Below, piece by piece: positions 331 through 12,645 of a stretch of DNA of 12,645 nucleotides. The first letter of the stretch is position 1. Every line of letters starts with the position of its first letter. The position numbers and the translations under genes were made by a program. The stretch comes from a virus (taxonomy: Duplodnaviria; Heunggongvirae; Uroviricota; Caudoviricetes), in the IMG/VR virus record IMGVR_UViG_2778261591_000019; one strand, given 5' to 3'. The notes below the pieces were generated by a model, which worked only from the letters and a program-made list of their open reading frames with translations, was not told where the DNA came from and made no database searches.

Positions 331-1743
331 GACGAATATGACAGTCTGTTACGGGAAGTGCCTGAAAAAATAAAGGCGAAATATGACGAAAGTGTGGCAA
401 ATCTGAAAGCACGTTATGAGAGCAATGGTGAAGTTGTTCCTCAGGGTAAACTCGATTCATTAATGCGAAAGTACGAAAAGGAATTACGGAAAGAACAGTC
501 CAGACTTTCAAAATCAAGAGCAAATGATCTCAGAGACATAACAGCATTACGCGATCGTCTTGTTGGTACATATGGTATGCCTGATGATCCGTCTTCGTTT
601 TTTGTTCGTGCTGGCGCTTTTCTGCGGGATGTGAACTTCACGACCAAACTCGGTGGAATGACAGTATCAGCTATTCCAGATCTGGCCAGAGGGGTTATGG
701 TTAATGGTTTCCGTAACACCATGAAAGGCTATGCTTCTCAGATATCCCAATCACCGGCATTTAAGGCCAGCAAAGAAGAGATGTTGAAGATGGGGATTGG
801 ATTGGAAGCTGTACTACATTCACGTTCTCGTGCAATTGGTGATCTTGTTGACAGTTCTTCCAGGACAACAGCAGTCGAAGCAGGAATGGAGCGAATTACT
901 GATGCCTTCGGCAAGCTGACACTCATGGATCGATTTAATGACATAAACAAATCCATGAACGGAATGCTCACGTCAGACGGTATTTTGTCTGGTGCGTTTT
1001 CTGCACGTCGCATGGCAAAACTCGGTATCAACGACAATATGGCTGCGCGTATTCGCAGTGAGTTCGAGAAACATGGTGAGGTAATTGATGGATGGCACAT
1101 TGGTAACTTTGATAAATGGGACGATCAGTACGTTGCCGGAGTATTCCAGTCAGCGGTTCTGAAAGACGTTAATAACACTATCATCACCCCCGGTATTGGT
1201 GACACACCTTTATGGGCGAGTACTCCAATGGGGCGAACGATATTTCAGTTTAAATCATTCACAACGGCTTCATACAACCGTGCGCTACTTGGTGGGTTAC
1301 AGGAAGGAACTGCGCAATTTTATTATGGCACTGTATTTCAGATTGCTCTTGGCTCACTGGTCTATGCGCTAAAAGAAGCATCGAAAGGGAAAAATGTTGA
1401 CTGGTCACCAGAGAAGCTGGTGCTTGAGGGTATAGATAGATCCGGTATTCTTGGGCCATTGATGGAATATAACAACATGGCTGAAAAGGCTACTGGTGGT
1501 GCTGTTGGGCTGGGGGCTTTATTTGGCACTGGCACACAGTCTAGGTATGCCAGTCGTGGATTCGTAGGATCTCTATTCGGACCGTCATTTGGTCTTGCGG
1601 ATAGCATCATTGATGTGACCGCAGGAGTGTTGAATGGTGATGCCGGTGATCGTATTGTGCATAATGTCCGAACCCTGATACCAGGCAATAACCTGTTCTG
1701 GATTGCGCCACTAATAAACCAGGTGGATCCGGTGATGCGGTGA
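331..1743 (+). pseudogene. 3' portion (about 470 codons) of a phage virion/DNA-ejection-type protein gene, 5' end removed by the IS insertion
   Basis: The reading frame is open from the IS boundary (331: D E Y D S L L R E V...) to the stop at 1741-1743, with no credible start codon or RBS near the 5' end. Position just upstream of a P22-type immI module, and a Gly-rich C-terminal region, are consistent with a gp16-like ejection protein, but family assignment is unverified. Confidence 0.6.
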
Positions 1744-1754
1744 GTTAAACGCCT

Positions 1755-2345
1755 TTAGCATGATTCAGGGGAAACCCCAATATTAAATATGAGTGACTCT
1801 CCTGAATCAGCATAATAATGTAATATTATTGACTTACGTTGTTTTCTTGCTTCGTAGAATAAACGCTCTTGCGGCGATAATTTGTGAAAACTGCCGGATG
1901 CACAATATATGTTTTTTAACTTTTCGCTGGTTGCTTTTATTGTATCTTCTGAGATGTATTTTAGGTATTTATCCGTATAGATGTTGCTACTATAAGAAAT
2001 TAATGTTTTGCTGTTGTTGTGATGTATTGTATTTTTATCGTTGAAGTCTGTATTTTTATTTACTGTCATTAGGTTTTTAATGATTACATGTAATGCAATA
2101 GTCTCCCCATCATCAATTCCATATTTGATGTCATAGTCAGTATATTTATTTGTTATACCGCTTCCTGATAGCGGCACTATGTACTCTGAGAAAAATGAGT
2201 TTGCCGCGTGACCATCAAGAGCAATAGCAGTTTTTTTGTGGTAAAAATAAAACAATATTGAGAGAGTCAAAATAATAGCGACGCCTAATGCAACCTTTAA
2301 TATAGATATGGTTTTCAAAATATCGCTCCTTGTTGTAACATACAT
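1755..2345 (-). CDS. Hypothetical single-pass membrane protein in an AT-rich island; candidate superinfection-exclusion-type moron
   Basis: About 200-codon ORF in visibly AT-rich DNA, where long ORFs are unlikely by chance. Predicted N-terminal TM helix (ISILKVALGVAIILTLSILFYFY) followed by an N/K/Y/S-rich soluble domain. Start ambiguous (ATG 2345 or TTG 2366), no clear SD. Sits where sieA lies in P22-like phages. Confidence 0.5.
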   Translation of the reverse strand: MYVTTRSDILKTISILKVALGVAIILTLSILFYFYHKKTAIALDGHAANSFFSEYIVPLSGSGITNKYTDYDIKYGIDDGETIALHVIIKNLMTVNKNTDFNDKNTIHHNNSKTLISYSSNIYTDKYLKYISEDTIKATSEKLKNIYCASGSFHKLSPQERLFYEARKQRKSIILHYYADSGESLIFNIGVSPESC

Positions 2346-2378
2346 CAGTAATGTGGCGTTTTTCAATTGTATTAAAGA

Positions 2379-2408
2379 CGTGTAATATGTACACGCCTTT
2401 TGTTCTTC
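2379..2408 (-). terminator. Weak hairpin plus T-rich tract between the mnt-like gene and the membrane-protein gene
   Basis: CGTGTA-ATATG-TACACG stem-loop (2379-2395) flanked by T-rich sequence; only a 6-bp stem. Confidence 0.25.
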
Positions 2409-2840
2409 CTATTCAGGTATTTCAATTCCAAAACCATCTGCATCCCATGAGTTTTCACAGATGATGTAACCTAGTTCATTGAGCTTATTAAATGTTTTTT
2501 CAAAGATGATCTGGTAATCATTATCTGCAAGTGATTCCAGTTCAAGGTCATTAAGGTTTATATAAAAACTTGTATGTCCAAGTGTTATTTTCTTATTGAT
2601 TTCATTAAAAGTTCTTTTGAAAATAATATTTGATATTTCATGCCGTGCATTGTTTGCAATAATTTTTGCTTCATAAGCAGAAATTACGTCATCTTCATGA
2701 ATATCTTTCAGAAAGCTGGTGTCAAGACGTTGTACTATTTCAGCGTTCATTGAGCGCTTATTGGCTTTTGCAGAAATTTCTATTTTTTCTTTTACTTCAA
2801 CGGGAAGTCTGATCCTTAGTTGTGGATCTTCTCTGCTCAT
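2409..2840 (-). CDS. mnt: Mnt-like ribbon-helix-helix repressor with an extra C-terminal domain of about 60 aa
   Basis: N-terminus MSREDPQLRIRLPVEVKEKIEISAKANKRSMNAEIVQRL matches the P22 Mnt RHH motif (DP..F..R.P.EV.EK....A.AN.RSMN.E..Q). ATG at 2840 preceded by a GGTGA SD. Divergent from the arc-like/ant genes as in P22 immI. 143 aa versus 83 aa for P22 Mnt. Confidence 0.75.
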   Translation of the reverse strand: MSREDPQLRIRLPVEVKEKIEISAKANKRSMNAEIVQRLDTSFLKDIHEDDVISAYEAKIIANNARHEISNIIFKRTFNEINKKITLGHTSFYINLNDLELESLADNDYQIIFEKTFNKLNELGYIICENSWDADGFGIEIPE

Positions 2841-2870
2841 GTTCTTCACCAAATATTGAGTTACTTGCAA

Positions 2871-2960
2871 TGATTGAAGTATGCCTCACCGTGTGCTTGA
2901 CATCAATGACGCACGGTGTGACAATTGTTTTGCCCCACGGTGGGGCTAAGGAGATATGAA
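2871..2960. promoter_or_regulatory. Divergent promoter/operator region (Pant-like promoter with RHH operator half-sites)
   Basis: -35 TTGACA (2897-2902), 17-nt spacer, -10 GACAAT (2920-2925), reading toward the arc-like gene. Heptamer CACGGTG at 2912-2918 and 2936-2942 and its reverse complement CACCGTG at 2887-2893, about 24-25 bp apart. SD TAAGGAG at 2947-2953. Confidence 0.45.
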
Positions 2961-3128
2961 ATGCAAAAAGCAAAAGAGATGTGTCAACGACGAGTTCGTT
3001 TTCCGGACGATGTGAAGTTAGCTATTGAAAGAAATGGCGAAAAAGAATGCCGAAAGTTCAATACAGAGATTATCTATCAGCTGAGGAAAGTGTATGGACT
3101 CACTGGTGAGAAGAATAGCGTGGCATAA
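2961..3128 (+). CDS. arc: Arc-like ribbon-helix-helix repressor (55 aa)
   Basis: ATG 2961 with strong SD (TAAGGAG, 7-nt spacing). 55 aa, similar in size to P22 Arc (53 aa). RVRFPDDVKLAI...NTEIIYQLRKV fits the RHH beta-strand/helix pattern. Immediately upstream of the antirepressor gene. Confidence 0.65.
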   Translation: MQKAKEMCQRRVRFPDDVKLAIERNGEKECRKFNTEIIYQLRKVYGLTGEKNSVA

Positions 3129-3200
3129 AACAGCGAAGCCCAACGGTGGCCAGACCGTCAGGGCTTCAGTATCGTAAAACTACGTATAGGAATTAACGAC
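3127..3200 (-). ncRNA. Predicted sar-like small antisense RNA across the antirepressor RBS/start
   Basis: Minus-strand promoter inside the first codons of ant: -35 TTGATA (complement of 3230-3235), 17-nt spacer, -10 TATACT (complement of 3207-3212). Minus-strand terminator: stem GAAGCCC/GGGCTTC (3135-3141 with 3161-3167) followed by a T-tract (complement of 3127-3134). Predicted length about 70 nt, as for P22 sar. Confidence 0.35.
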
Positions 3201-4145
3201 ATGACGAGTATAGCAACAGCGCTATCTACTATCAACGTGCCATTCCACGGCGCAGAACTTTATGTTGTCAATCACAACGGAGAACCGTACACCCCAATGA
3301 AACCTATCGTTGAAGGCATGGGTATGGATTGGGCTTCACAGTTTACGAAAATGAAGCAGCGGTTTAAAACCTGCATTGTGAAAATCACAATGCAGCTTCC
3401 TGGGGATGAACAGCGCCGTGAGATTATTTGTTTGGCACTTCGCAAACTTGCTGGCTGGTTGCAAACCATCAGCCCTAACAAAGTCCGCCCTGAAATCCGC
3501 GACAAGGTAATCCAGTATCAGGAAGAGTGTGACGATGTTCTCTACGAGTACTGGACTAAAGGCCATGTGGTTAACCCACGCAAAGCTAAAAAGGCGTTGC
3601 CGGGTAAAATAACCACTGAACAGCAGGAAGCCATTAAACAACTCGTCATGAGTCGCGGTCAGTCTCTGCCAAAAGAAAAACAGGCTAAGGCGATGATCAC
3701 CATGTGGTCGTCACTGAAATCTCATTTTGGCTGTTCGTACAAAGAAATTGATGAAGATCAATTCGCCGAAGCGTTGTCTCTTGTTGCTCGGGTTCCGCTT
3801 GAAGGGGAGCATCTCCCTGCTGGATCTGCATCAGAGAATGATGAAGTGGCAGTCAAGATGTTAGATGCGCTTCGTGAGGCAATTAAAACACAGACAAAAT
3901 GTTATGGTTATCCGCTGAAGCCCGGCTACCGCAGTCTGATTCATTCGCCGTCTGGTGTTCTCGGCCTGACGGAGAACTCACTGCTGATGAATCTGCTTAA
4001 CCAGTTACAGGACGACGGGCACGATGTATCGGGCGCGGCGGCGGAGCTGACCACCATGTTCTGCTACATCGTCGGTGTGAGCAAGTGCCTGCGTGATATC
4101 CAGACCCACGCGGAGTACATCAACGACAAGGCAGGGTTCTTCTGA
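3201..4145 (+). CDS. ant: Phage antirepressor (Ant); N-terminal AntA-type domain plus a C-terminal module shared with two other genes in the window
   Basis: 314-aa ORF directly after arc in the immI arrangement, with ATG 3201 and AGGA upstream. N-terminus VPFHGAELYVVNHNGEPYTPMKPIVEGMGMDW resembles antirepressor N-domains. C-terminal 77 aa are near-identical to the C-terminus of the 5121-5813 gene. Confidence 0.75.
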   Translation: MTSIATALSTINVPFHGAELYVVNHNGEPYTPMKPIVEGMGMDWASQFTKMKQRFKTCIVKITMQLPGDEQRREIICLALRKLAGWLQTISPNKVRPEIRDKVIQYQEECDDVLYEYWTKGHVVNPRKAKKALPGKITTEQQEAIKQLVMSRGQSLPKEKQAKAMITMWSSLKSHFGCSYKEIDEDQFAEALSLVARVPLEGEHLPAGSASENDEVAVKMLDALREAIKTQTKCYGYPLKPGYRSLIHSPSGVLGLTENSLLMNLLNQLQDDGHDVSGAAAELTTMFCYIVGVSKCLRDIQTHAEYINDKAGFF

Positions 4146-4169
4146 CAGAACGGCGGCACAGGGATGTGC
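3915..4169. repeat. Inverted repeat, left copy (3' end of ant plus about 24 bp downstream)
   Basis: Reverse complement of 5099-5353 matches 3915-4169 at about 95% identity by hand alignment (about 12 mismatches over 231 coding bp); similarity continues past the stop codons (CGGCGGCACAGGGATGTGC). Confidence 0.85.
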
Positions 4170-4281: not shown

Positions 4282-4827
4282 TTATTCCTTCCATTTATCA
4301 GAAAAAAGATCTTCTTCTAAAGGCATTGGTTCTGTTTTTGTTTTCTCAAAGAATTGATAACTGATAGTGATTGCTTCCTCTTTAAACTCTTCTTGCTCAG
4401 TTATGTTGTGGGCATCTGCGTCAACAAAAAACATAACCAGCGCATCACGATTGTGATTTACCGAATAAACTAAAAAGCAATCACTTGTTGGTATGCATTT
4501 TACTTGCACAGACGCTATATTTTTCCATGCATCCCAAGATGATTTTTTACCAGTGTGTTTTTTATCACTATCTTCTGGAATATAGTCTTGGTTATCGACA
4601 TGAGTATGCCTGACATTTAGTTTAAGCATTTCTGTCGGACGAGCAAATGCAGCATCTTTACCAAGAGATGGATGGTATCCCGTTTTCCAATACTGGGTAA
4701 AGGCATCAGATACTTTCTTCAGCTCAAGATCAGATGCACAAAGGGCCGAGAAATTTTGCGTATGCAATACTCGACCCTTATATCTGACAATTTGATTTTT
4801 ATCATTCTGCGACGCAGACGAACTCAT
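4282..4827 (-). CDS. YafO-like toxin candidate (181 aa)
   Basis: ATG 4827 with AAGGA SD. By-eye similarity to E. coli YafO as I recall it: GKDAAF..P..LKLNVRHTHV versus GRDALY..P..IKFERVAHIHL, and FLVYSV...ALVMFFVDADAH versus HLVYCQ...WLLIAILKPEPH. The YafO sequence is from memory and unverified. Confidence 0.55.
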   Translation of the reverse strand: MSSSASQNDKNQIVRYKGRVLHTQNFSALCASDLELKKVSDAFTQYWKTGYHPSLGKDAAFARPTEMLKLNVRHTHVDNQDYIPEDSDKKHTGKKSSWDAWKNIASVQVKCIPTSDCFLVYSVNHNRDALVMFFVDADAHNITEQEEFKEEAITISYQFFEKTKTEPMPLEEDLFSDKWKE

Positions 4828-4981
4828 AATTTTCCTTATTGTTACGAGAATCAAAGAAAGCTCGGGATACGCGACTTGCGTGATCTTTTGTCATAGTAAC
4901 TTTTACGTACTCTACGCTTCCATTGAAAGAACGTCTTGCGGCAGCTTGCGCTCTACGCATCTGCAATTTTTCGTTTCGCAT
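4802..4981 (-). CDS. Small basic ORF (59 aa) overlapping the start of the toxin-like gene; candidate cognate antitoxin/regulator
   Basis: Not in the supplied ORF track (below size cutoff). ATG 4981 preceded by GAGG SD; stop TGA at 4804-4802 overlaps the downstream gene start by 26 nt. Promoter-like -35 TTGGTT (complement of 5031-5036), 17-nt spacer, -10 TGTAAT (complement of 5008-5013). Product MRNEKLQMRRAQAAARRSFNGSVEYVKVTMTKDHASRVSRAFFDSRNNKENYEFVCVAE. Confidence 0.35.
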   Translation of the reverse strand: MRNEKLQMRRAQAAARRSFNGSVEYVKVTMTKDHASRVSRAFFDSRNNKENYEFVCVAE

Positions 4982-5098: not shown

Positions 5099-5353
5099 GC
5101 ACATCCCTGTGCGCCGCCCGTCAGAAGAACCCTGCTTTGTCGTTGATATACTCCGCGTGAGTCTGGATATCACGCAGGCATTTGCTCACACCAACGATGT
5201 AGCAGAACATGGTGGTCAGCTCCGCCGCCGCGCCAGATACGTCGTGCCCGTCTTCCTGTAACTGGTTCAGCAGATTCATCAGCAGTGAGTTCTCCGTCAG
5301 GCCGAGAACACCAGACGGAGAATGAATCAGGCTGCGGTATCCGGGCTTCAGTG
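5099..5353. repeat. Inverted repeat, right copy (3' end of the second antirepressor gene plus flanking bases)
   Basis: See left copy; the two copies encode nearly identical C-terminal peptides KPGYRSLIHSPSGVLGLTENSLLMNLLNQLQ(D/E)DGHDVSGAAAELTTMFCYIVGVSKCLRDIQTHAEYINDKAGFF on opposite strands. Confidence 0.85.
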
Positions 5354-5813
5354 GGGCGCTGTAGGTTTTGTTCTCTATCTTCATTGCCTGCATTACTGCT
5401 GACGCCGTGGCGTTGGCTACCTGGTCGGCAACCATCTTTATGCGTTCTTCCTGCGGGAGCGAGTTTTTAATGTAACTTCCAGTGCGGCGGATCTGAGGAA
5501 GAACCTCACCTGTAACCCATTCAAGAAATCTGAATGCTCTCGTTCCCTCTGTCATTGCCTCTTTGCAACGCAGAATAAGGATGTAGAGACCTGATTCTGA
5601 AACGATGGATAGTTCTTGTATTCCACCAGGGGTCTGTATTGAATACAGCCCCTTTTTGTTCCAGCCTTTTTTATCAAGTTTTCTCGCTTGTGTAACATCA
5701 ATATTCAAAGCATTGCACACATCTTTGGTGACAAACCAAGGTTCTCCGTCAATCATGAACATACGGATCTGGCAGGATGACTCAAAGGAAAAGATGGAAG
5801 GTTTGGTATTCAT
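5121..5813 (-). CDS. Second antirepressor: Bro-N-type N-terminal domain plus the shared antirepressor C-terminal module (230 aa)
   Basis: ATG 5813 with AGGTG SD. N-terminus IRMFMIDGEPWFVTKDVCNALNI...SESGLYILILRCKEAMTEGTRAFRFLEWVTGEVLPQIRR has classic Bro-N/antirepressor motifs. C-terminus as in ant. Confidence 0.8.
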   Translation of the reverse strand: MNTKPSIFSFESSCQIRMFMIDGEPWFVTKDVCNALNIDVTQARKLDKKGWNKKGLYSIQTPGGIQELSIVSESGLYILILRCKEAMTEGTRAFRFLEWVTGEVLPQIRRTGSYIKNSLPQEERIKMVADQVANATASAVMQAMKIENKTYSAPLKPGYRSLIHSPSGVLGLTENSLLMNLLNQLQEDGHDVSGAAAELTTMFCYIVGVSKCLRDIQTHAEYINDKAGFF

Positions 5814-6079
5814 GGCGATCACCTTTGTAGTTAGGTTAATCACCACCGCTGAGACCAATCAGATGGTGGTGAACTGTGCAGAGTTGGTCTTACCGGCTAC
5901 AAAGGAACCCGGCGCACCTTTCGGTGCCCCCACACAGCCCACCATAGAATAGGTGCGCTTTACACATAAAAAAACCGCTTATGCGGCATATGTGCCTCTG
6001 TAGTAATCCGGGAGACCAATCCCGGCACTGGATTTTGCCAGTGCCCGGTTACTATGGCACAGGATGAGTGCGATGTAAA

Positions 6080-6096
6080 TTTACCGTAAAGGTAAT
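6080..6096. promoter_or_regulatory. ATTACC-N5-GGTAAT palindrome (distal site upstream of the 6209 gene)
   Basis: ATTACCGTAAAGGTAAT read directly. Confidence 0.35.
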
Positions 6097-6172
6097 GATA
6101 AGCGCTGAGAAATATCAAAATCAACCGTATTTGGTTGATGGAGTTTAATGCTTGATCACCTGAAAGCAAGAT

Positions 6173-6208: not shown

Positions 6209-6937
6209 ATGGAAGTTTTCTGGATAGTTGTTGGTGTGGTTGCGGTGATTATTTATGTCCTTCACCAGAACAAGACTAAGATCTCTGATCGCACGGTCGT
6301 TAATCATAACAAAACGATAAAGACCGAAGATGGGGAGATAACGATTAATCGTACACAGGTGATAGAACACACCTCTACTCAGTTTCAAAAAACTGGAGGT
6401 AATGCGCCTAATATTTCCGCACCTCCTGCTTATGATAGTGAGGTAATCCAGACATATTATAAACAGCAGGAGTTAGCAAAAGAGAGGCAACTGATTCAGC
6501 CAAAGCCATTTACAGCAGAGCTTCCACCTGGAGTGTCAACGCGTCCGGCATATCATGGAAGATTCCCTGGTGATGACATATCGTCTCAGTCACCTAAAAA
6601 AGCACCTCAGGCAGTATCAGAGTCAGCAAGAATACCTTCTGTATCGCCGTCAAAAGAAGAATCAGCTAACAGAGTTTCAAGTGGCCGCAAGCAGTGTTTG
6701 CGATGCAGAATAAACCTTCCATATGAAAAATTCCGGAAATCGTCAAAAAATCCAGATGGATTGACTAAGTGGTGTGCAAGGTGTCTCGATGGCCCAAAGA
6801 ATACACGTCATATGAAGTGGTGCCCAATTTGTAATGTCCGCAGAAAACGAACCAGCTTTTATCCTAATAATCAAAATGCGGATGGTTTAATGGCATGGTG
6901 CAAAACGTGCTGGGACGAGCACAAAGCGAAACGATAG
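6209..6937 (+). CDS. Membrane-tethered protein with two tandem C-x2-C-x22-C-x2-C zinc-ribbon motifs (242 aa); function unknown
   Basis: ATG 6209 with GAGG SD. N-terminal TM helix (VFWIVVGVVAVIIYVL), S/P/Q-rich linker, then CLRC-x22-CARC and CPIC-x22-CKTC, each with a conserved P...N.DGL..WC core. Confidence 0.7.
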   Translation: MEVFWIVVGVVAVIIYVLHQNKTKISDRTVVNHNKTIKTEDGEITINRTQVIEHTSTQFQKTGGNAPNISAPPAYDSEVIQTYYKQQELAKERQLIQPKPFTAELPPGVSTRPAYHGRFPGDDISSQSPKKAPQAVSESARIPSVSPSKEESANRVSSGRKQCLRCRINLPYEKFRKSSKNPDGLTKWCARCLDGPKNTRHMKWCPICNVRRKRTSFYPNNQNADGLMAWCKTCWDEHKAKR

Positions 6938-6960
6938 GCCGCTCTTGCGGCCTTTTCTTT
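6937..6960 (+). terminator. Rho-independent terminator after the zinc-ribbon gene (possibly bidirectional)
   Basis: GGCCGC-TCTT-GCGGCC hairpin (6937-6952) plus TTTTCTTT; same stem sequence as the ant terminator at 4197-4212. Confidence 0.6.
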
Positions 6961-7216
6961 ATGTAGTTTGTTTTCGTAATTGTTCGGCACAATAGTCGAG
7001 ATGTGTTTGCAGATCCTGCATAGACATCTGTGAGCTGGTGACGTAGTTAATCAGTGCAGTCAGTTCGGCAAGTGGGCCATCGACATTAAATCCATCCTTA
7101 TCGAGATCCCGGAGTAATTTCATCAAGTGCGATCCCTCCACCAGTGACCTGACGCCTCCCGGCGTGTGAATCCTTTCGGTAAATCCCTCTTCCAGTGGAT
7201 AGTGATACTGCTGCAT
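6959..7216 (-). CDS. Stand-alone antirepressor C-terminal-module protein (85 aa)
   Basis: ATG 7216 with GGAG SD. IHTPGGVRSLVEGSHLMKLLRDLDKDGFNVDGPLAELTALINYV...DLQTHLDY aligns with IHSPSGVLGLTENSLLMNLLNQLQDDGHDVSGAAAELTTMFCYI...DIQTHAEY of both antirepressors, about 45% identity by eye. Confidence 0.7.
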   Translation of the reverse strand: MQQYHYPLEEGFTERIHTPGGVRSLVEGSHLMKLLRDLDKDGFNVDGPLAELTALINYVTSSQMSMQDLQTHLDYCAEQLRKQTT

Positions 7217-7291
7217 CTTATCTTCTCCATGCAATAACTGTATAAATATACAGTAGCAAATAATTTGTTTGCTATCCAGCACGTTTTGCGA

Positions 7292-7411: not shown

Positions 7412-9406
7412 ATGACGGTCTCAACCGAAGTTGACCACAACGAATATACAGGTAACGGTGTTACAACTACGTTCCCTTATACCTTTAGGATTTTCCAGAA
7501 ATCTGATCTGGTGGTGCAGGTGATTGACCTTGACGAGAATATCACTGTGCTGGCTCTTGATACTGATTACGCAGTCACTGGTGCGGGAGGCTATAGCGGC
7601 GGTAATATAATACTGTCGAAGGCATTGGCCAACGGTTATCAGATCTCTATATCACGAGAGCTCCCGGTTACTCAGGAAACAGATCTGCGTAATCAGGGTA
7701 AATTCTTTGCAGAGGTGCATGAGGATGCGTTTGATAAGCTAACGATGCTGATTCAACAATGTCGTAGCTTGTTTCGTCTTGCACTTTGCAAACCATCAAG
7801 TATTGCAAACTGGTACGACGCTTTAAATAACAGGATTAGAAATCTTAAAGATCCAGAAAGCCCTCAGGATGCAGTAACTTTAAGTTATCTTGAAGGGTAT
7901 ATAGAAGGTGGTGATAGTACTTTGCGTCCAGATATTACAAGAACTGGAGCTGTAGGGAATAATATACAGCAAGCCATAAACTTATCTATAGCCGGTCAAA
8001 CTGTAATTACGATGAAAGATGATGAAATTGTATCTTCATTGTTAAATGAATATGGTGTTGAAATTGAGCAACGCAGGGGGCGTGTATTTAATACAGAAGG
8101 TGTTCAACTAACAACGTATTCTGACCCTCGTTCCCGTTTTGTAACTGGTGACCAATATCTTAATTATGTTATTAGCAAGATGATAAAAGCAGATGGCGTG
8201 GATAAATCACAGAAAACATATATTTTGTGGTCTGGTGACTCCACGATTGTTGGTGTTAACTCTGAATTATGGCCACCAGCAACTATTGCTGATTTTTATG
8301 CAAAAAGGTATGGAATTATTGATGTAAAAAATACATCGTTAGGTCATTCAGGTAAAACTCTATACGAATGGGGTAATTGGTATATTGATCAGGAATGGTC
8401 TGTTTTTTCTGCTGCTGATTTGATTGTTTTACGATGGGGAATTAACGATCCATATTATGGTTATACATTGGATCAAGTAAAAGACGCATTAGATAGAGGT
8501 CTTTCCAAGTTACGAAATAACAAATCAGTTTCCCAGCAATCAATTATTATCATGTCCCCAAACTCAACATCAGACACACCAAACGGACGTGATGAAAAAT
8601 GGTATGAACAGTTAACAGCCGTACTTAGAGCCAAAGCAAAACAATATAAGTGTATGTTTTTTGATACTTACGGTATGTGGCAGGATTCGCGAGGATCTGC
8701 TGGTAACTGGCTTGACGACCCTTATGGCGATGGCAGGGGAATACACCCAAACTCAACATTTAGCGCACAGATACATAAATTATTATTTGAATATATTTAT
8801 GGACCGTGTGCTGTTATAAATGGGAGTAGCAACCTTTTTTCTAACAATGGTTCTTCCATACAATTCATCAATAGCTCATATCCGCCAAATACTTTTCACA
8901 TGGGGACTTCATGGTGGAGAACAAACCCTGATGATGCTTCTTGGCCTCTTGACGGTGTTATTCAGGTTGATAGATTTGTTGACGGAATAGTAGTACAAAA
9001 AAATTATGGTTATTCTTCAGATAATGCTCGCGTTTGCTTAATGAGGATTGGAAGGATTAGTGAGAATACATGGAGTACATGGCGAGGTAATCAGTATGAT
9101 ATGAGTGGCATATTGCAAAATGGTTGGTCTGTAGGTGAGGCAAGAAGTGGAACATATCAGAAATCAGCCGAGGGCGTTGTTACTTTATCTGCTGTTTTAA
9201 CAGGTGGAAATACATCTGTTGGCACAGTTATTATGGTATTGCCAGAAGGGTTTAGACCAAAGAATGATATTTCTTATATTCCATCAGGTACTGATTCATC
9301 GGTTGCCCTCATTAATATACTTTCAAACGGTAAAGTTACAATTCAGAGCTATCCGTCAGGAACAGTTCTTGTAATTAATACGACATTCCCTTCATTAGTT
9401 AATTAG
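7412..9406 (+). CDS. Tailspike/tail fibre with conserved N-terminal particle-binding domain, central SGNH (GDSL-type) esterase domain and C-terminal beta-rich receptor-binding region (664 aa)
   Basis: ATG 7412 with GGAG SD. SGNH blocks: WSGDST (G275-D276-S277), LGHSGKT, WGINDP, GRGIHPN. N-terminal about 120 aa (NEYTGNGVTTTFPYTF...DTDYAVTG) resembles tail-fibre/tailspike anchor domains. Size and domain order fit an O-antigen-deacetylating tailspike. Confidence 0.8.
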   Translation: MTVSTEVDHNEYTGNGVTTTFPYTFRIFQKSDLVVQVIDLDENITVLALDTDYAVTGAGGYSGGNIILSKALANGYQISISRELPVTQETDLRNQGKFFAEVHEDAFDKLTMLIQQCRSLFRLALCKPSSIANWYDALNNRIRNLKDPESPQDAVTLSYLEGYIEGGDSTLRPDITRTGAVGNNIQQAINLSIAGQTVITMKDDEIVSSLLNEYGVEIEQRRGRVFNTEGVQLTTYSDPRSRFVTGDQYLNYVISKMIKADGVDKSQKTYILWSGDSTIVGVNSELWPPATIADFYAKRYGIIDVKNTSLGHSGKTLYEWGNWYIDQEWSVFSAADLIVLRWGINDPYYGYTLDQVKDALDRGLSKLRNNKSVSQQSIIIMSPNSTSDTPNGRDEKWYEQLTAVLRAKAKQYKCMFFDTYGMWQDSRGSAGNWLDDPYGDGRGIHPNSTFSAQIHKLLFEYIYGPCAVINGSSNLFSNNGSSIQFINSSYPPNTFHMGTSWWRTNPDDASWPLDGVIQVDRFVDGIVVQKNYGYSSDNARVCLMRIGRISENTWSTWRGNQYDMSGILQNGWSVGEARSGTYQKSAEGVVTLSAVLTGGNTSVGTVIMVLPEGFRPKNDISYIPSGTDSSVALINILSNGKVTIQSYPSGTVLVINTTFPSLVN

Positions 9407-10876: not shown

Positions 10877-11355
10877 TCTGGGCATTCGTAAAAGCATACT
10901 GGAAACAGATGCTTATCGTGTTGATGCTTGCTGCTCTGTTCATCGTCGGAGTGGTTGCCTGGAATATACACGGCAGCCGCCAGTACGATGCCGGGTATGC
11001 GCAGGCGGAAGAAGACCGCAAAGACGAAGAAGACAAAGTTCGTCAGTACTACGAACAGGAGAAAGTGACCAATGAACGTGAAGCTCAGCAGAGGATCGAC
11101 CAGGCGCGCAATGATGCTCTTGATGCTGCCGCTCGCGCTGGCCGGTTGCAGCAACAACTCTTTGCCATCCGTGAGTATCTCAGGCAGTATAACGCCATTG
11201 TCGGCGCTGGGACGTCAGCCGCAGACACCGGAGTTTTGCTTGCCGACGTGCTCAGCAAATCTCTCGAGAGAAACAGACAACTGGCAGAGTATGCTGACCG
11301 GGCAGCCGAAGCCGGAAGAGTCTGCGAAAAACAGTACGACACCCTGACCAGATAG
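10873..11355 (+). CDS. i-spanin (Rz-like): N-terminal TM anchor plus periplasmic coiled coil
   Basis: ATGA start/stop overlap with the endolysin (10873-10876). TM helix [18 protein letters not shown] followed by a charged helical region; contains an embedded +1-frame lipoprotein ORF. Confidence 0.65.
11072..11347 (+). CDS. o-spanin (Rz1-like outer-membrane lipoprotein) embedded within the i-spanin gene
   Basis: Signal peptide with lipobox ([26 protein letters not shown]), Pro/Ser-rich mature region; entirely inside the Rz frame, ending 8 nt before it. Start could instead be ATG 11111. Confidence 0.55.
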   Translation: MNVKLSRGSTRRAMMLLMLPLALAGCSNNSLPSVSISGSITPLSALGRQPQTPEFCLPTCSANLSRETDNWQSMLTGQPKPEESAKNSTTP

Positions 11356-11574: not shown

Positions 11575-12114
11575 TTAATTAAACCAGCTGTCCGATTTGT
11601 TCTCTTCTGCTTTGCCCACGCTTTTCATCAGATCGCGACCGCCTTCAGTCATATTTCTGTTGGCGTCAGCTTCAGATTGCACCACATCGGTTTGCGCAGC
11701 TTTGTGCTTCAGTTCCTGATCGATAAATTCGTTTTCTCGCTTAACGCGGGCTTCTTCTTTCGCCAGCGCCAGTTTTTGTTTCTGAATCTCTAAGCTGCGT
11801 AGCTCATCTTCATAACTTTGATCGCGTTTTTTGTCCGCAGAGGCTTCGGCGTCCAGTTTATCCTGACGAGCTTTCTTATTTGCTGCTGCCGTTGCCGCTC
11901 TTTTGTTAGCGGCGGCCTGGGCATTTGCGCGACGTTGCTTCTCTTGCTGGATTTCCCTGTTGCGCTCCGCGACCCATTCGTCATGCTGCCTTTGCTCTTC
12001 ATTTTTACCTTGCTGTTCAGCTTCTGCTACAGCAGAGAGTTGATCCTGCAATGATGAGGCGATAGCCGGATAGCTTAAGGAGGCCAAGATGGCGCAAAGA
12101 AAAACTTTCTTCAT
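11575..12114 (-). CDS. Secreted coiled-coil protein (signal peptide; Ala/Lys/Glu/Gln-rich), 179 aa
   Basis: ATG 12114 with strong AGGAGG SD. Signal peptide MKKVFLCAILASLSYPAIA; remainder strongly helical/charged. No family recognised. Confidence 0.6.
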   Translation of the reverse strand: MKKVFLCAILASLSYPAIASSLQDQLSAVAEAEQQGKNEEQRQHDEWVAERNREIQQEKQRRANAQAAANKRAATAAANKKARQDKLDAEASADKKRDQSYEDELRSLEIQKQKLALAKEEARVKRENEFIDQELKHKAAQTDVVQSEADANRNMTEGGRDLMKSVGKAEENKSDSWFN

Positions 12115-12129
12115 GACTCCTCCTGATTA

Positions 12130-12645
12130 TTAGCTCTTTTCAGGACATTTAGTATTTGGCTGAATACGCGTTTCGTTATACGTTGTGGTAATAACAACGG
12201 CTAAACCTGTCGTAAACTGGCACTCTTTACCCACCTGGGTAGAGGTATACACTTTGGTGCCTTCCTTATATGTTAAAGAAACACCTTCCACTAAGGTTTT
12301 ATCATTCACCATAGAACCCGCTGCCGCGCCTACAGCTCCGCCGCCAACTGCCCCTGCCGTCGTTCCGGAATTGCTGCCAGAACCGACGTTGTGGCCGATA
12401 ACACCGCCAGCGACTGCGCCAATAAGCGCGCCGAAGGCTTGTGCGTTCCGTTTATTTTGGGAGTTGTCTACGGCAACTTTTGCGGGAAGAATGGAAATAA
12501 TATTAACGGTTTTAGTTTCTTGTTTGGTATTCAGTTGATCGGTTTGATAAACATCGGCGGCATGATCGTCAGCATTTGACTGGCATCCTGCCAGAGTGAA
12601 TGACGCTAACATTGCCACAGGCAGAAGACATTTTTTAAATTTCAT
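12130..12645 (-). CDS. Outer-membrane lipoprotein with glycine-zipper domain (YcfJ/SlyB/Pcp-like, 17-kDa-antigen family), 171 aa
   Basis: Lipobox LAGC after a signal peptide. GALIGAVAGGVIGHNVGSG...GAVGGGAVGAAAG closely resembles the YcfJ/SlyB glycine-zipper core (from memory). ATG at the window edge (12645). Confidence 0.7.
   Translation of the reverse strand: MKFKKCLLPVAMLASFTLAGCQSNADDHAADVYQTDQLNTKQETKTVNIISILPAKVAVDNSQNKRNAQAFGALIGAVAGGVIGHNVGSGSNSGTTAGAVGGGAVGAAAGSMVNDKTLVEGVSLTYKEGTKVYTSTQVGKECQFTTGLAVVITTTYNETRIQPNTKCPEKS

Follow-up and report, generated by a model that had tools for sequence, protein, structure and literature searches.

The AT-rich island at positions 1744-2870 of a 12,645-nucleotide (nt) stretch of tailed-virus DNA (IMG/VR record IMGVR_UViG_2778261591_000019, hereafter the window) and the divergent genes beside it carry a complete P22-type immI switch in a phage that is not P22-like. 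The switch consists of a long mnt gene, an arc-like gene, the sar antisense RNA and the antirepressor gene ant, and it is complete because the sar RNA supplies the element that was missing beside the other three. The immI region of P22 is a textbook example of a regulatory switch, and its Arc and Mnt proteins serve as models of the ribbon-helix-helix family. In the reading that we hold to be fairly probable, the long Mnt is the maintenance repressor of ant and bears an oligomerisation domain, and the membrane protein encoded next to it is independent cargo, both in an epsilon15/TL-2011b-like prophage. The switch is made up of the following features (aa, amino acids).

2409..2840, minus strand: long Mnt-type repressor gene, 143 aa, with ATG at 2840 and stop at 2409-2411
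2703-2840, minus strand: ribbon-helix-helix head, residues 1-46, with a flexible linker after it
2412-2699, minus strand: C-terminal alpha/beta domain, residues 48-143, as modelled
2878..2906, minus strand: putative mnt promoter TTGATG-17-CATACT, read from the sequence and below the scanner threshold
2883..2897, no strand: operator-like palindrome O1 (GCCTCACCGTGTGCT), within the putative mnt promoter spacer
2897..2925, plus strand: arc/ant promoter TTGACA (2897-2902)-17-GACAAT (2920-2925), TG-preceded, from the promoter scan and conserved across 16 loci
2907..2923, no strand: operator-like palindrome O2 (TGACGCACGGTGTGACA), in the ant promoter spacer, at the place of O-arc in P22
2932..2946, no strand: operator-like palindrome O3 (GCCCCACGGTGGGGC), 6 nt past the -10 hexamer
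2961..3128, plus strand: arc-like small repressor gene, 55 aa, BLASTP against P22 Arc E 4e-5
3132..3199, minus strand: sar antisense RNA, Rfam RF00262, full length, 45.2 bits (gathering score 43), E 2.5e-7
3201..4145, plus strand: antirepressor Ant with a P22_AR_N domain (domain search), the regulated target

The head of the long Mnt was found to match the Arc family of Pfam (PF03869) over residues 2-46 with an E value of 1e-14 and 54.5 bits for a cut-off of 20.4, and helices are modelled at residues 14-26 and 31-46. The best solved match was the Mnt N-terminal domain 1mnt (E 3.5e-7, residues 3-45). By BLASTP, the protein is 32% identical to P22 Mnt over residues 1-86 (E 3e-14) in an alignment that spans the long helix (residues 55-86) and ends exactly at the P22 Mnt terminus, beyond which the long Mnt extends by 57 residues. 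These three matches bear out the description of the 143-aa protein as an Mnt homologue in an earlier note on this DNA, and as far as sequence can tell its best reading is that of the Mnt equivalent. The protein is a full-length member of PHROG 1388 (E 5e-72, 143/143 positions), and its gene has a ratio of non-synonymous to synonymous polymorphism (pN/pS) of about 0.05. A 153-aa open reading frame (ORF) starting at a TTG was discarded as an artefact of the ORF listing; the relatives all begin MSREDPQ.

Several traits are common to the long Mnt and P22 Mnt. Among characterised ribbon-helix-helix proteins its head is most similar to that of Mnt, the head leads through a linker into a long helix, and transcription of the gene diverges from that of an arc-ant operon with a sar antisense RNA, as mnt does from arc-sar-ant in P22. 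On the contrary, P22 Mnt counts 83 aa instead of 143, the base-contacting strand reads H-N-R in P22 and Q-R-R here, and the long mnt gene is found in epsilon15-like podoviruses and several siphoviruses but not in P22-like phages. The N-terminal strand (MSREDPQLRIRLP) is unchanged among close relatives. In the long Mnt it reads PQLRIRLP and in the arc-like protein CQRRVRFP, with Q-x-R-x-R in both; the Q, R and R are at what we take to be the positions that contact bases in Arc and Mnt. As a side observation, the free phage TL-2011b (NC_019445, around 11210-11215, corresponding to window 2812-2816) has an extra G (GG to GGG) in codon 9 of its long mnt gene, which shifts the frame after MSREDPQL, and its annotated gene begins later (342 nt). 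Either the extra base is a sequencing error or the phage is naturally mnt-defective; if real, the change could explain the release of the phage from its lysogen.

The 120-base pair (bp) divergent region was better conserved than the proteins across the window and 15 other loci, with the consensus ATTATG-CCCCAC(G/C)GTGGGG-TTGACA-(T/G)CAATGACGCACGGTGT-GACA(A/C)T-(6-8 nt)-GCC(C/T)CACGGTGGGGC. Three palindromes centred on CAC(G/C)GTG, 25 and then 24-27 bp apart, were present in 14 of the 16 loci, from about 12 genera, the two Proteus loci being without the third core; by chance, about 2.5 heptamers of the CAC(G/C)GTG type would be expected over the whole 12.6-kb window. The leftward TTGATG-17-CATACT, which reads TTGnnG-17-CATAAT in other loci and lies back to back with the ant promoter, is the putative mnt promoter. 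The operator O1 in its spacer has the consensus GCCCCACGGTGGGG in other loci. A 9-bp core, CCACGGTGG, is common to O3 and to the annotated P22 mnt operator (AGGTCCACGGTGGACCT), which likewise lies 6 nt past its -10 hexamer, so that the core is found at equal distance from the ant -10 hexamer in both phages. O3 would accordingly provide a symmetric operator overlapping the start of the ant transcript. The common Q-R-R strand would fit this common operator core. While P22 has distinct O-arc and O-mnt sites, three related operators are found here. In a Vibrio relative, the strand residues and the palindromes are both different (TGACAGC-N5-GCTGTCA, two copies), yet their layout around the promoter is the same.

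The sar RNA runs antisense across the junction of arc and ant. Its promoter-like site (3235-3207) lies inside ant, it is provided with a terminator-like hairpin, and its fold was better than that of shuffled sequence (z -3.05). It was also found in siphovirus cassettes of Leclercia (L003 7636-7704) and E. coli (L006 7637-7705); in the remaining 12 loci no match reached the gathering threshold.

The pairing of the long mnt gene with a small divergent gene extends well beyond this prophage. A close set of 15 loci from other genomes, with long-Mnt relatives at 52-64% identity, covers Leclercia, Yersinia, Escherichia, Kluyvera, Citrobacter, Dryocola, Xenorhabdus, Rouxiella, Proteus, Morganella and Raoultella, and in 15/15 of them long mnt is divergent from an arc-like gene whose product shares 62-76% identity with the 55-aa window protein. 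Gene calls were at hand for three of these loci (L003, L004 and L006), where a Bro-N-type antirepressor gene comes after the arc-like gene and the cassette is found within siphovirus tail gene clusters. In the same way, all five members of a distant set at 29-37% identity (Vibrio navarrensis, a Pseudomonas genome and three uncultured sources) have a divergent gene of 53-77 aa across a short region; in four it precedes a Bro-N, pRha/ANT or KilA-N gene, and the fifth is on a 1.3-kb contig that is too short to tell. A small gene is thus opposite long mnt in all 20 prophage loci examined. The long mnt gene, its operators, the arc-like gene, sometimes sar, and a variable antirepressor gene form a compact cassette that moves between unrelated tailed prophages. 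A second, longer form of Mnt therefore travels among such prophages in many Gammaproteobacteria, a modest variation on a well-known phage circuit that does not overturn its current understanding.

In the Pseudomonas filamentous phage PfAC03, a long-Mnt member with the head and the same C-terminal domain (L008 2929-3423) adjoins an excisionase gene, at the site where other Pf phages have repressor C. According to a published survey, an Arc-family gene stands in for repressor C there in 6.6% of Pf prophages (PMC7549136). The place of the PfAC03 member indicates that the scaffold is not confined to the control of ant.

The prophage itself is epsilon15/TL-2011b-like, with an epsilon15/T7-type core, and is not P22-like. 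At 99% identity, the window matches Escherichia phage TL-2011b as well as prophages in 36 of the 5,426 complete E. coli genomes, and it encodes a T7 gp14-family core protein, an internal virion protein with an SLT domain and a tail protein with the N-terminal domain of the T7 tail fibre; positions 11575-12645 are host DNA (yfgI, yfgH). From left to right, the last ejection or internal virion gene (358-1743, plus strand) is followed by the membrane ORF and the mnt-like gene on the minus strand, the arc-like gene and ant on the plus strand, more genes and the tailspike. The annotated P22 order is 16, sieA, orf59a and mnt, then arc, ant and 9. The analogy with the sieA slot of P22-like phages drawn in the earlier note consequently stands, although the phage itself is of another type and bears a portable P22-type immI cassette.

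The C-terminal part of the long Mnt is what sets it apart. A full-length AlphaFold2 model, built on a 21-sequence alignment, had a predicted local distance difference test score (pLDDT) of 82.8 over the whole protein with a low-confidence linker around residues 41-50, and residues 48-143 modelled alone reached a pLDDT of 90.8 and a predicted template modelling score of 0.78. In the predicted layout, a helix of 32 residues is followed by a strand, a short acidic loop (DLELE), a second helix of 17 residues and two further strands. In the model, residues 48-143 are a single small alpha/beta domain of 96 aa and not a tail. The extension claimed earlier is indeed absent from the ordinary 83-aa Mnt, but it is not a separate 60-aa tail, and a short coiled-coil tetramerisation domain of the P22 Mnt type was not found in the 143-aa protein. 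Nor is it a one-off novelty, as it defines an existing subfamily, PHROG 1388, with 19 clusters.

The hidden Markov model searches and structure prediction that had been proposed for this region gave a confident model and no match in Pfam, PDB or fold searches. No Pfam match to the domain was obtained for any of the 20 family members, PDB sequences, the Mnt C-terminal domain among them, gave only noise in a profile search (such as DnaK, E 0.06), and a Foldseek search against viral models gave nothing below E 1e-3. Comparison of its profile with P22 Mnt by hhalign was not significant (probability 0.9%). The domain shows no significant sequence or fold similarity to any of the C-terminal domains of NikR, AmrZ, MatP and TraM, and neither the ferredoxin/ACT-like domain with conserved ligand residues of NikR-like proteins nor metal-site residues were seen in the long Mnt.

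The domain is rare, with just 19 clusters at 50% identity among the 1.84 billion representatives searched. Of 29 proteins matching its profile, most of which are 137-157 aa long, 26 have an N-terminal Arc domain in the precomputed Pfam annotation; the remainder are three proteins of only 69-122 aa, of which one is labelled partial, and no head other than Arc was seen among the 29. A 758-aa match from the representative search (P0036) is a repetitive protein and was taken as spurious, and Acinetobacter ribbon-helix-helix proteins of 143 aa from the genome scan were excluded for having a different C-terminal region. G88, L120 and G124 are invariant, and conserved polar positions are K/R66, R76, E80, K83 and H89 with the acidic set D98/E100/E102/D106. 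The entries of PHROG 1388 and of the NCBI 'Arc family DNA-binding protein' name the head domain only and do not describe the C-terminal domain, the operators or the arc-ant pairing, and neither the long Mnt protein nor the immI region of TL-2011b was described in the literature searched. The extension is a rare, unclassified domain of an existing but unstudied subfamily.

Past the mnt stop codon in P22 (L005 3750-3800) and SE1 (L007 1750-1800), the same frame reads KKTT*RRVNFCIYLGH and resembles the long-Mnt family at the same register (KKARMGHKNFCIDL), with a tblastn E value of 0.036 that was obtained post hoc in a tiny search space. This frame may be a relic, the 83-aa Mnt being in that case a truncated long Mnt.

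The second gene of the island encodes the membrane protein. The features of this part are as follows (GC, guanine plus cytosine).

1744..2870, no strand: AT-rich island, 32.8% GC
1755..2318, minus strand: orphan single-pass membrane protein gene, 187 aa, TTG start, with AAGGAG at 2326-2331, 7 nt upstream
2366..2395, minus strand: hairpin CGTGTACATATTACACG behind the mnt-like gene, its T tail weak, a consensus match only and of presumed function
overlapping 2366..2395, minus strand: sigma-70-like site TGTACA-16-TACAAT, upstream of the membrane gene, a consensus match only

The composition profile called for in the earlier note was run and the flanks were clearly higher in GC than the island, as it had claimed: GC is 49.3% in ant and 45.8% in the upstream virion gene, for 44.1% over the complete window. 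The island lies about 8 binomial standard deviations under the remainder of the window. The lowest GC over 1127 nt (32.7%) begins at 1754, and equally low windows make up 0.26% of all such windows. In 300-nt windows, GC falls from 0.47-0.49 (1500-1800) to 0.30-0.35 (1800-2850) and then returns to 0.41-0.47. Both minus-strand genes of the island are real, each has about 32.5% GC, and their third-codon-position GC is 0.31 and 0.24. Milder low-GC patches were found in a YafO-like gene (4282-4854, 36.8%) and in the C-terminal part of the tailspike (37.6%), and the island is the most extreme among several mosaic low-GC patches. Its left edge is a mosaic breakpoint, as the related prophage L090 is 99.4% identical through window position 1739 and divergent beyond. 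The island is a mosaic module made of a regulator and an orphan cargo gene.

The longer ORF at 1755-2366 on the minus strand would give 203 aa from a TTG, and the TTG at 2318 is the likely start of the membrane gene, judging from its sequence. The resulting length of 187 aa agrees with PHROG 8033 (full length, match over residues 17-203 of the 203-aa ORF) and with the RefSeq annotation. The sole hydrophobic segment lies around residues 4-26 (Kyte-Doolittle maximum 2.47), in agreement with the single N-terminal transmembrane segment announced in the earlier note, and positive charges on both sides leave the topology ambiguous. Cysteines are found at positions 139 and 187. The most divergent E. 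coli copies have 12 synonymous and 9 non-synonymous differences (pN/pS 0.2-0.3), and the gene is a real one under purifying selection. Homologues form four close clusters only in 5.8 billion proteins, TL-2011b alone carries the gene among 50,697 phage records, and the gene is restricted to the TL-2011b-like prophage lineage. No match was obtained in Pfam, NCBIfam or PDB; a PADLOC match to ThsB (E 0.013) was non-significant and was not accepted.

In position, the membrane gene does occupy the slot of sieA, between the last ejection-protein gene and mnt and on the same strand as mnt. In P22 this slot holds orf59a and sieA, and in L090 it holds a non-homologous 175-aa ORF with a transmembrane anchor. 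Elsewhere, the genes beside long mnt vary or are missing between loci, as in L012, which appears to carry gtrA/gtrB-like genes, and in L013, which appears to have an acyltransferase-like one, both examples being known from N-terminal sequences only. The slot is viewed as a variable cargo site because L090 and other loci hold different genes there. It appears to gather lysogenic-conversion genes, the orphan membrane protein being one candidate, and our best guess for its role is modification of the cell envelope or exclusion. As a separate observation, the gene directly downstream of the short mnt in a P22-like prophage of E. coli STEC384 (L091 2968-3740) is annotated as a ClpP-like protease subunit, a further uncommon cargo gene at the site beside mnt.

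The following working of the switch is proposed. In the lysogen, the long Mnt would be made from a weak leftward promoter and its ribbon-helix-helix head would bind the CAC(G/C)GTG-centred palindromes, chiefly O3, where the ant transcript starts. It would probably also bind O1 in its own promoter and thereby regulate itself, as P22 Mnt does. The arc-ant operon would stay silent, and Ant could then not inactivate the prophage repressor. The C-terminal domain would replace the coiled-coil tail of Mnt and most likely join head dimers into tetramers or higher oligomers, leading to cooperative occupancy of the evenly spaced operators. The membrane gene would be an independently acquired moron, cargo that the phage can grow without, and its expression in the prophage would depend on mnt-promoter read-through, on a promoter of its own, or on both. 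The system offers a natural experiment on how ribbon-helix-helix heads gain cooperativity, with operators defined for testing.

An oligomerising role is suggested because the domain sits at the place of the Mnt tetramerisation helix, follows a flexible linker, is not found without an Arc head and shows no conserved pocket. Mnt, AmrZ, MatP, TraM and NikR all have C-terminal oligomerisation modules added to ribbon-helix-helix heads. Nevertheless, this is an argument from analogy, and other observations also weigh against the proposal. The long C-terminal helix corresponds to the Mnt tetramerisation helix by position only, because the C-terminal profile gave no Mnt match, and the would-be exposed face of strand beta1 is not conserved as hydrophobic. 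Residues 87-143 carry a net charge of -10, and the conserved acidic set could equally mark a partner-binding surface. In addition, the Q-x-R-x-R strand of both the long Mnt and the arc-like protein makes the assignment of proteins to operators ambiguous, and O1 is degenerate in the window, so that autoregulation may be weak here. If the domain were instead a sensor or docking site, as had been suggested earlier, the binding of a ligand or protein would free the ant promoter and lead to Ant-mediated, non-SOS induction. We consider this unlikely: nothing specific was found in its support, the domain was not seen with any other DNA-binding head, and the lack of conserved pocket-like polar residues fits oligomerisation better. 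In a more specific form, which we take to be distinctly improbable, the acidic patch would dock a host or phage factor that releases the ant promoter, making the domain a signal-receiving switch; if true, a class of prophages in Enterobacterales, Vibrio and Pseudomonas would have an SOS-independent, Ant-mediated induction route on a portable cassette.

For the membrane protein, a SieA-like superinfection-exclusion factor that blocks incoming phage DNA at the inner membrane is conceivable but rather doubtful. Like P22 SieA, it is a prophage membrane protein encoded in the same slot and orientation, and its N-terminal anchor, its own promoter-like site, purifying selection, the anchored ORF in the slot of the related prophage and the surface-modification genes adjoining long mnt in other loci would all agree with such a role. 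However, similarity to SieA was not found (BLASTP E 0.14, with the alignment limited to hydrophobic segments), and SieA is another kind of membrane protein. The window protein has a single N-terminal anchor followed by a soluble domain of about 160 aa and is restricted to TL-2011b-like prophages. Position alone is insufficient for function; the lack of database matches and the non-significant ThsB hit do not help either. A toxin-antitoxin or abortive-infection pair, made of a ribbon-helix-helix antitoxin and a membrane toxin, would suit the regulator-first order of the two genes, yet a hairpin and a separate promoter-like site lie between them, the membrane gene is present in 0/15 other long-mnt loci, the downstream neighbour varies or is missing, and the repressor always pairs with arc-ant, so that such a pair is very hard to credit. 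Just as implausible is that the island is silenced or decaying foreign DNA devoid of function. Low GC and the confinement of the membrane ORF homologues to one prophage lineage would be expected in that case, but both ORFs are intact in the 36 complete E. coli genomes, the pN/pS values of mnt and of the membrane ORF given above are low, and the regulatory DNA is kept across genera.

Other observations concern the remainder of the window. A YafO-family toxin-like protein is encoded at 4282-4854 on the minus strand (Pfam 26.1 bits for a cut-off of 25), a small ORF of TL-2011b overlaps its start, and this patch is likely another cargo module. On either side of it are the two arms of an inverted repeat (3912-4169 / 5099-5354), about 258 bp long and 95% identical, which corresponds to the C-terminal module common to Ant and the Bro-N antirepressor; a third copy of the module stands alone at 6959-7282 on the minus strand (PHROG 450). 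Prophage L090 matches window 5099-6136, just beyond the repeat, at 97% and in the opposite orientation, which suggests that a rearrangement between the repeats took place.

A 242-aa protein encoded at 6209-6937 on the plus strand carries a hydrophobic anchor at its N terminus (MEVFWIVVGVVAVIIYVL) and zinc-ribbon-like repeats at the C-terminal side, belongs to PHROG 6762 and gave weak endonuclease VII/HNH-like matches. The DNA around the start of its gene shares about 90% identity with the beginning of the unrelated transmembrane-anchored ORF in the sieA-like slot of L090 (6566-7093). Finally, the tailspike (7412-9406, plus strand) has an N-terminal adaptor resembling the T7 tail fibre and a central GDSL esterase domain (Pfam E 7e-15), and its receptor-binding part is low in GC. 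Between the tailspike and holin genes, TL-2011b has an O-acetyltransferase gene that the prophage of the window does not carry.

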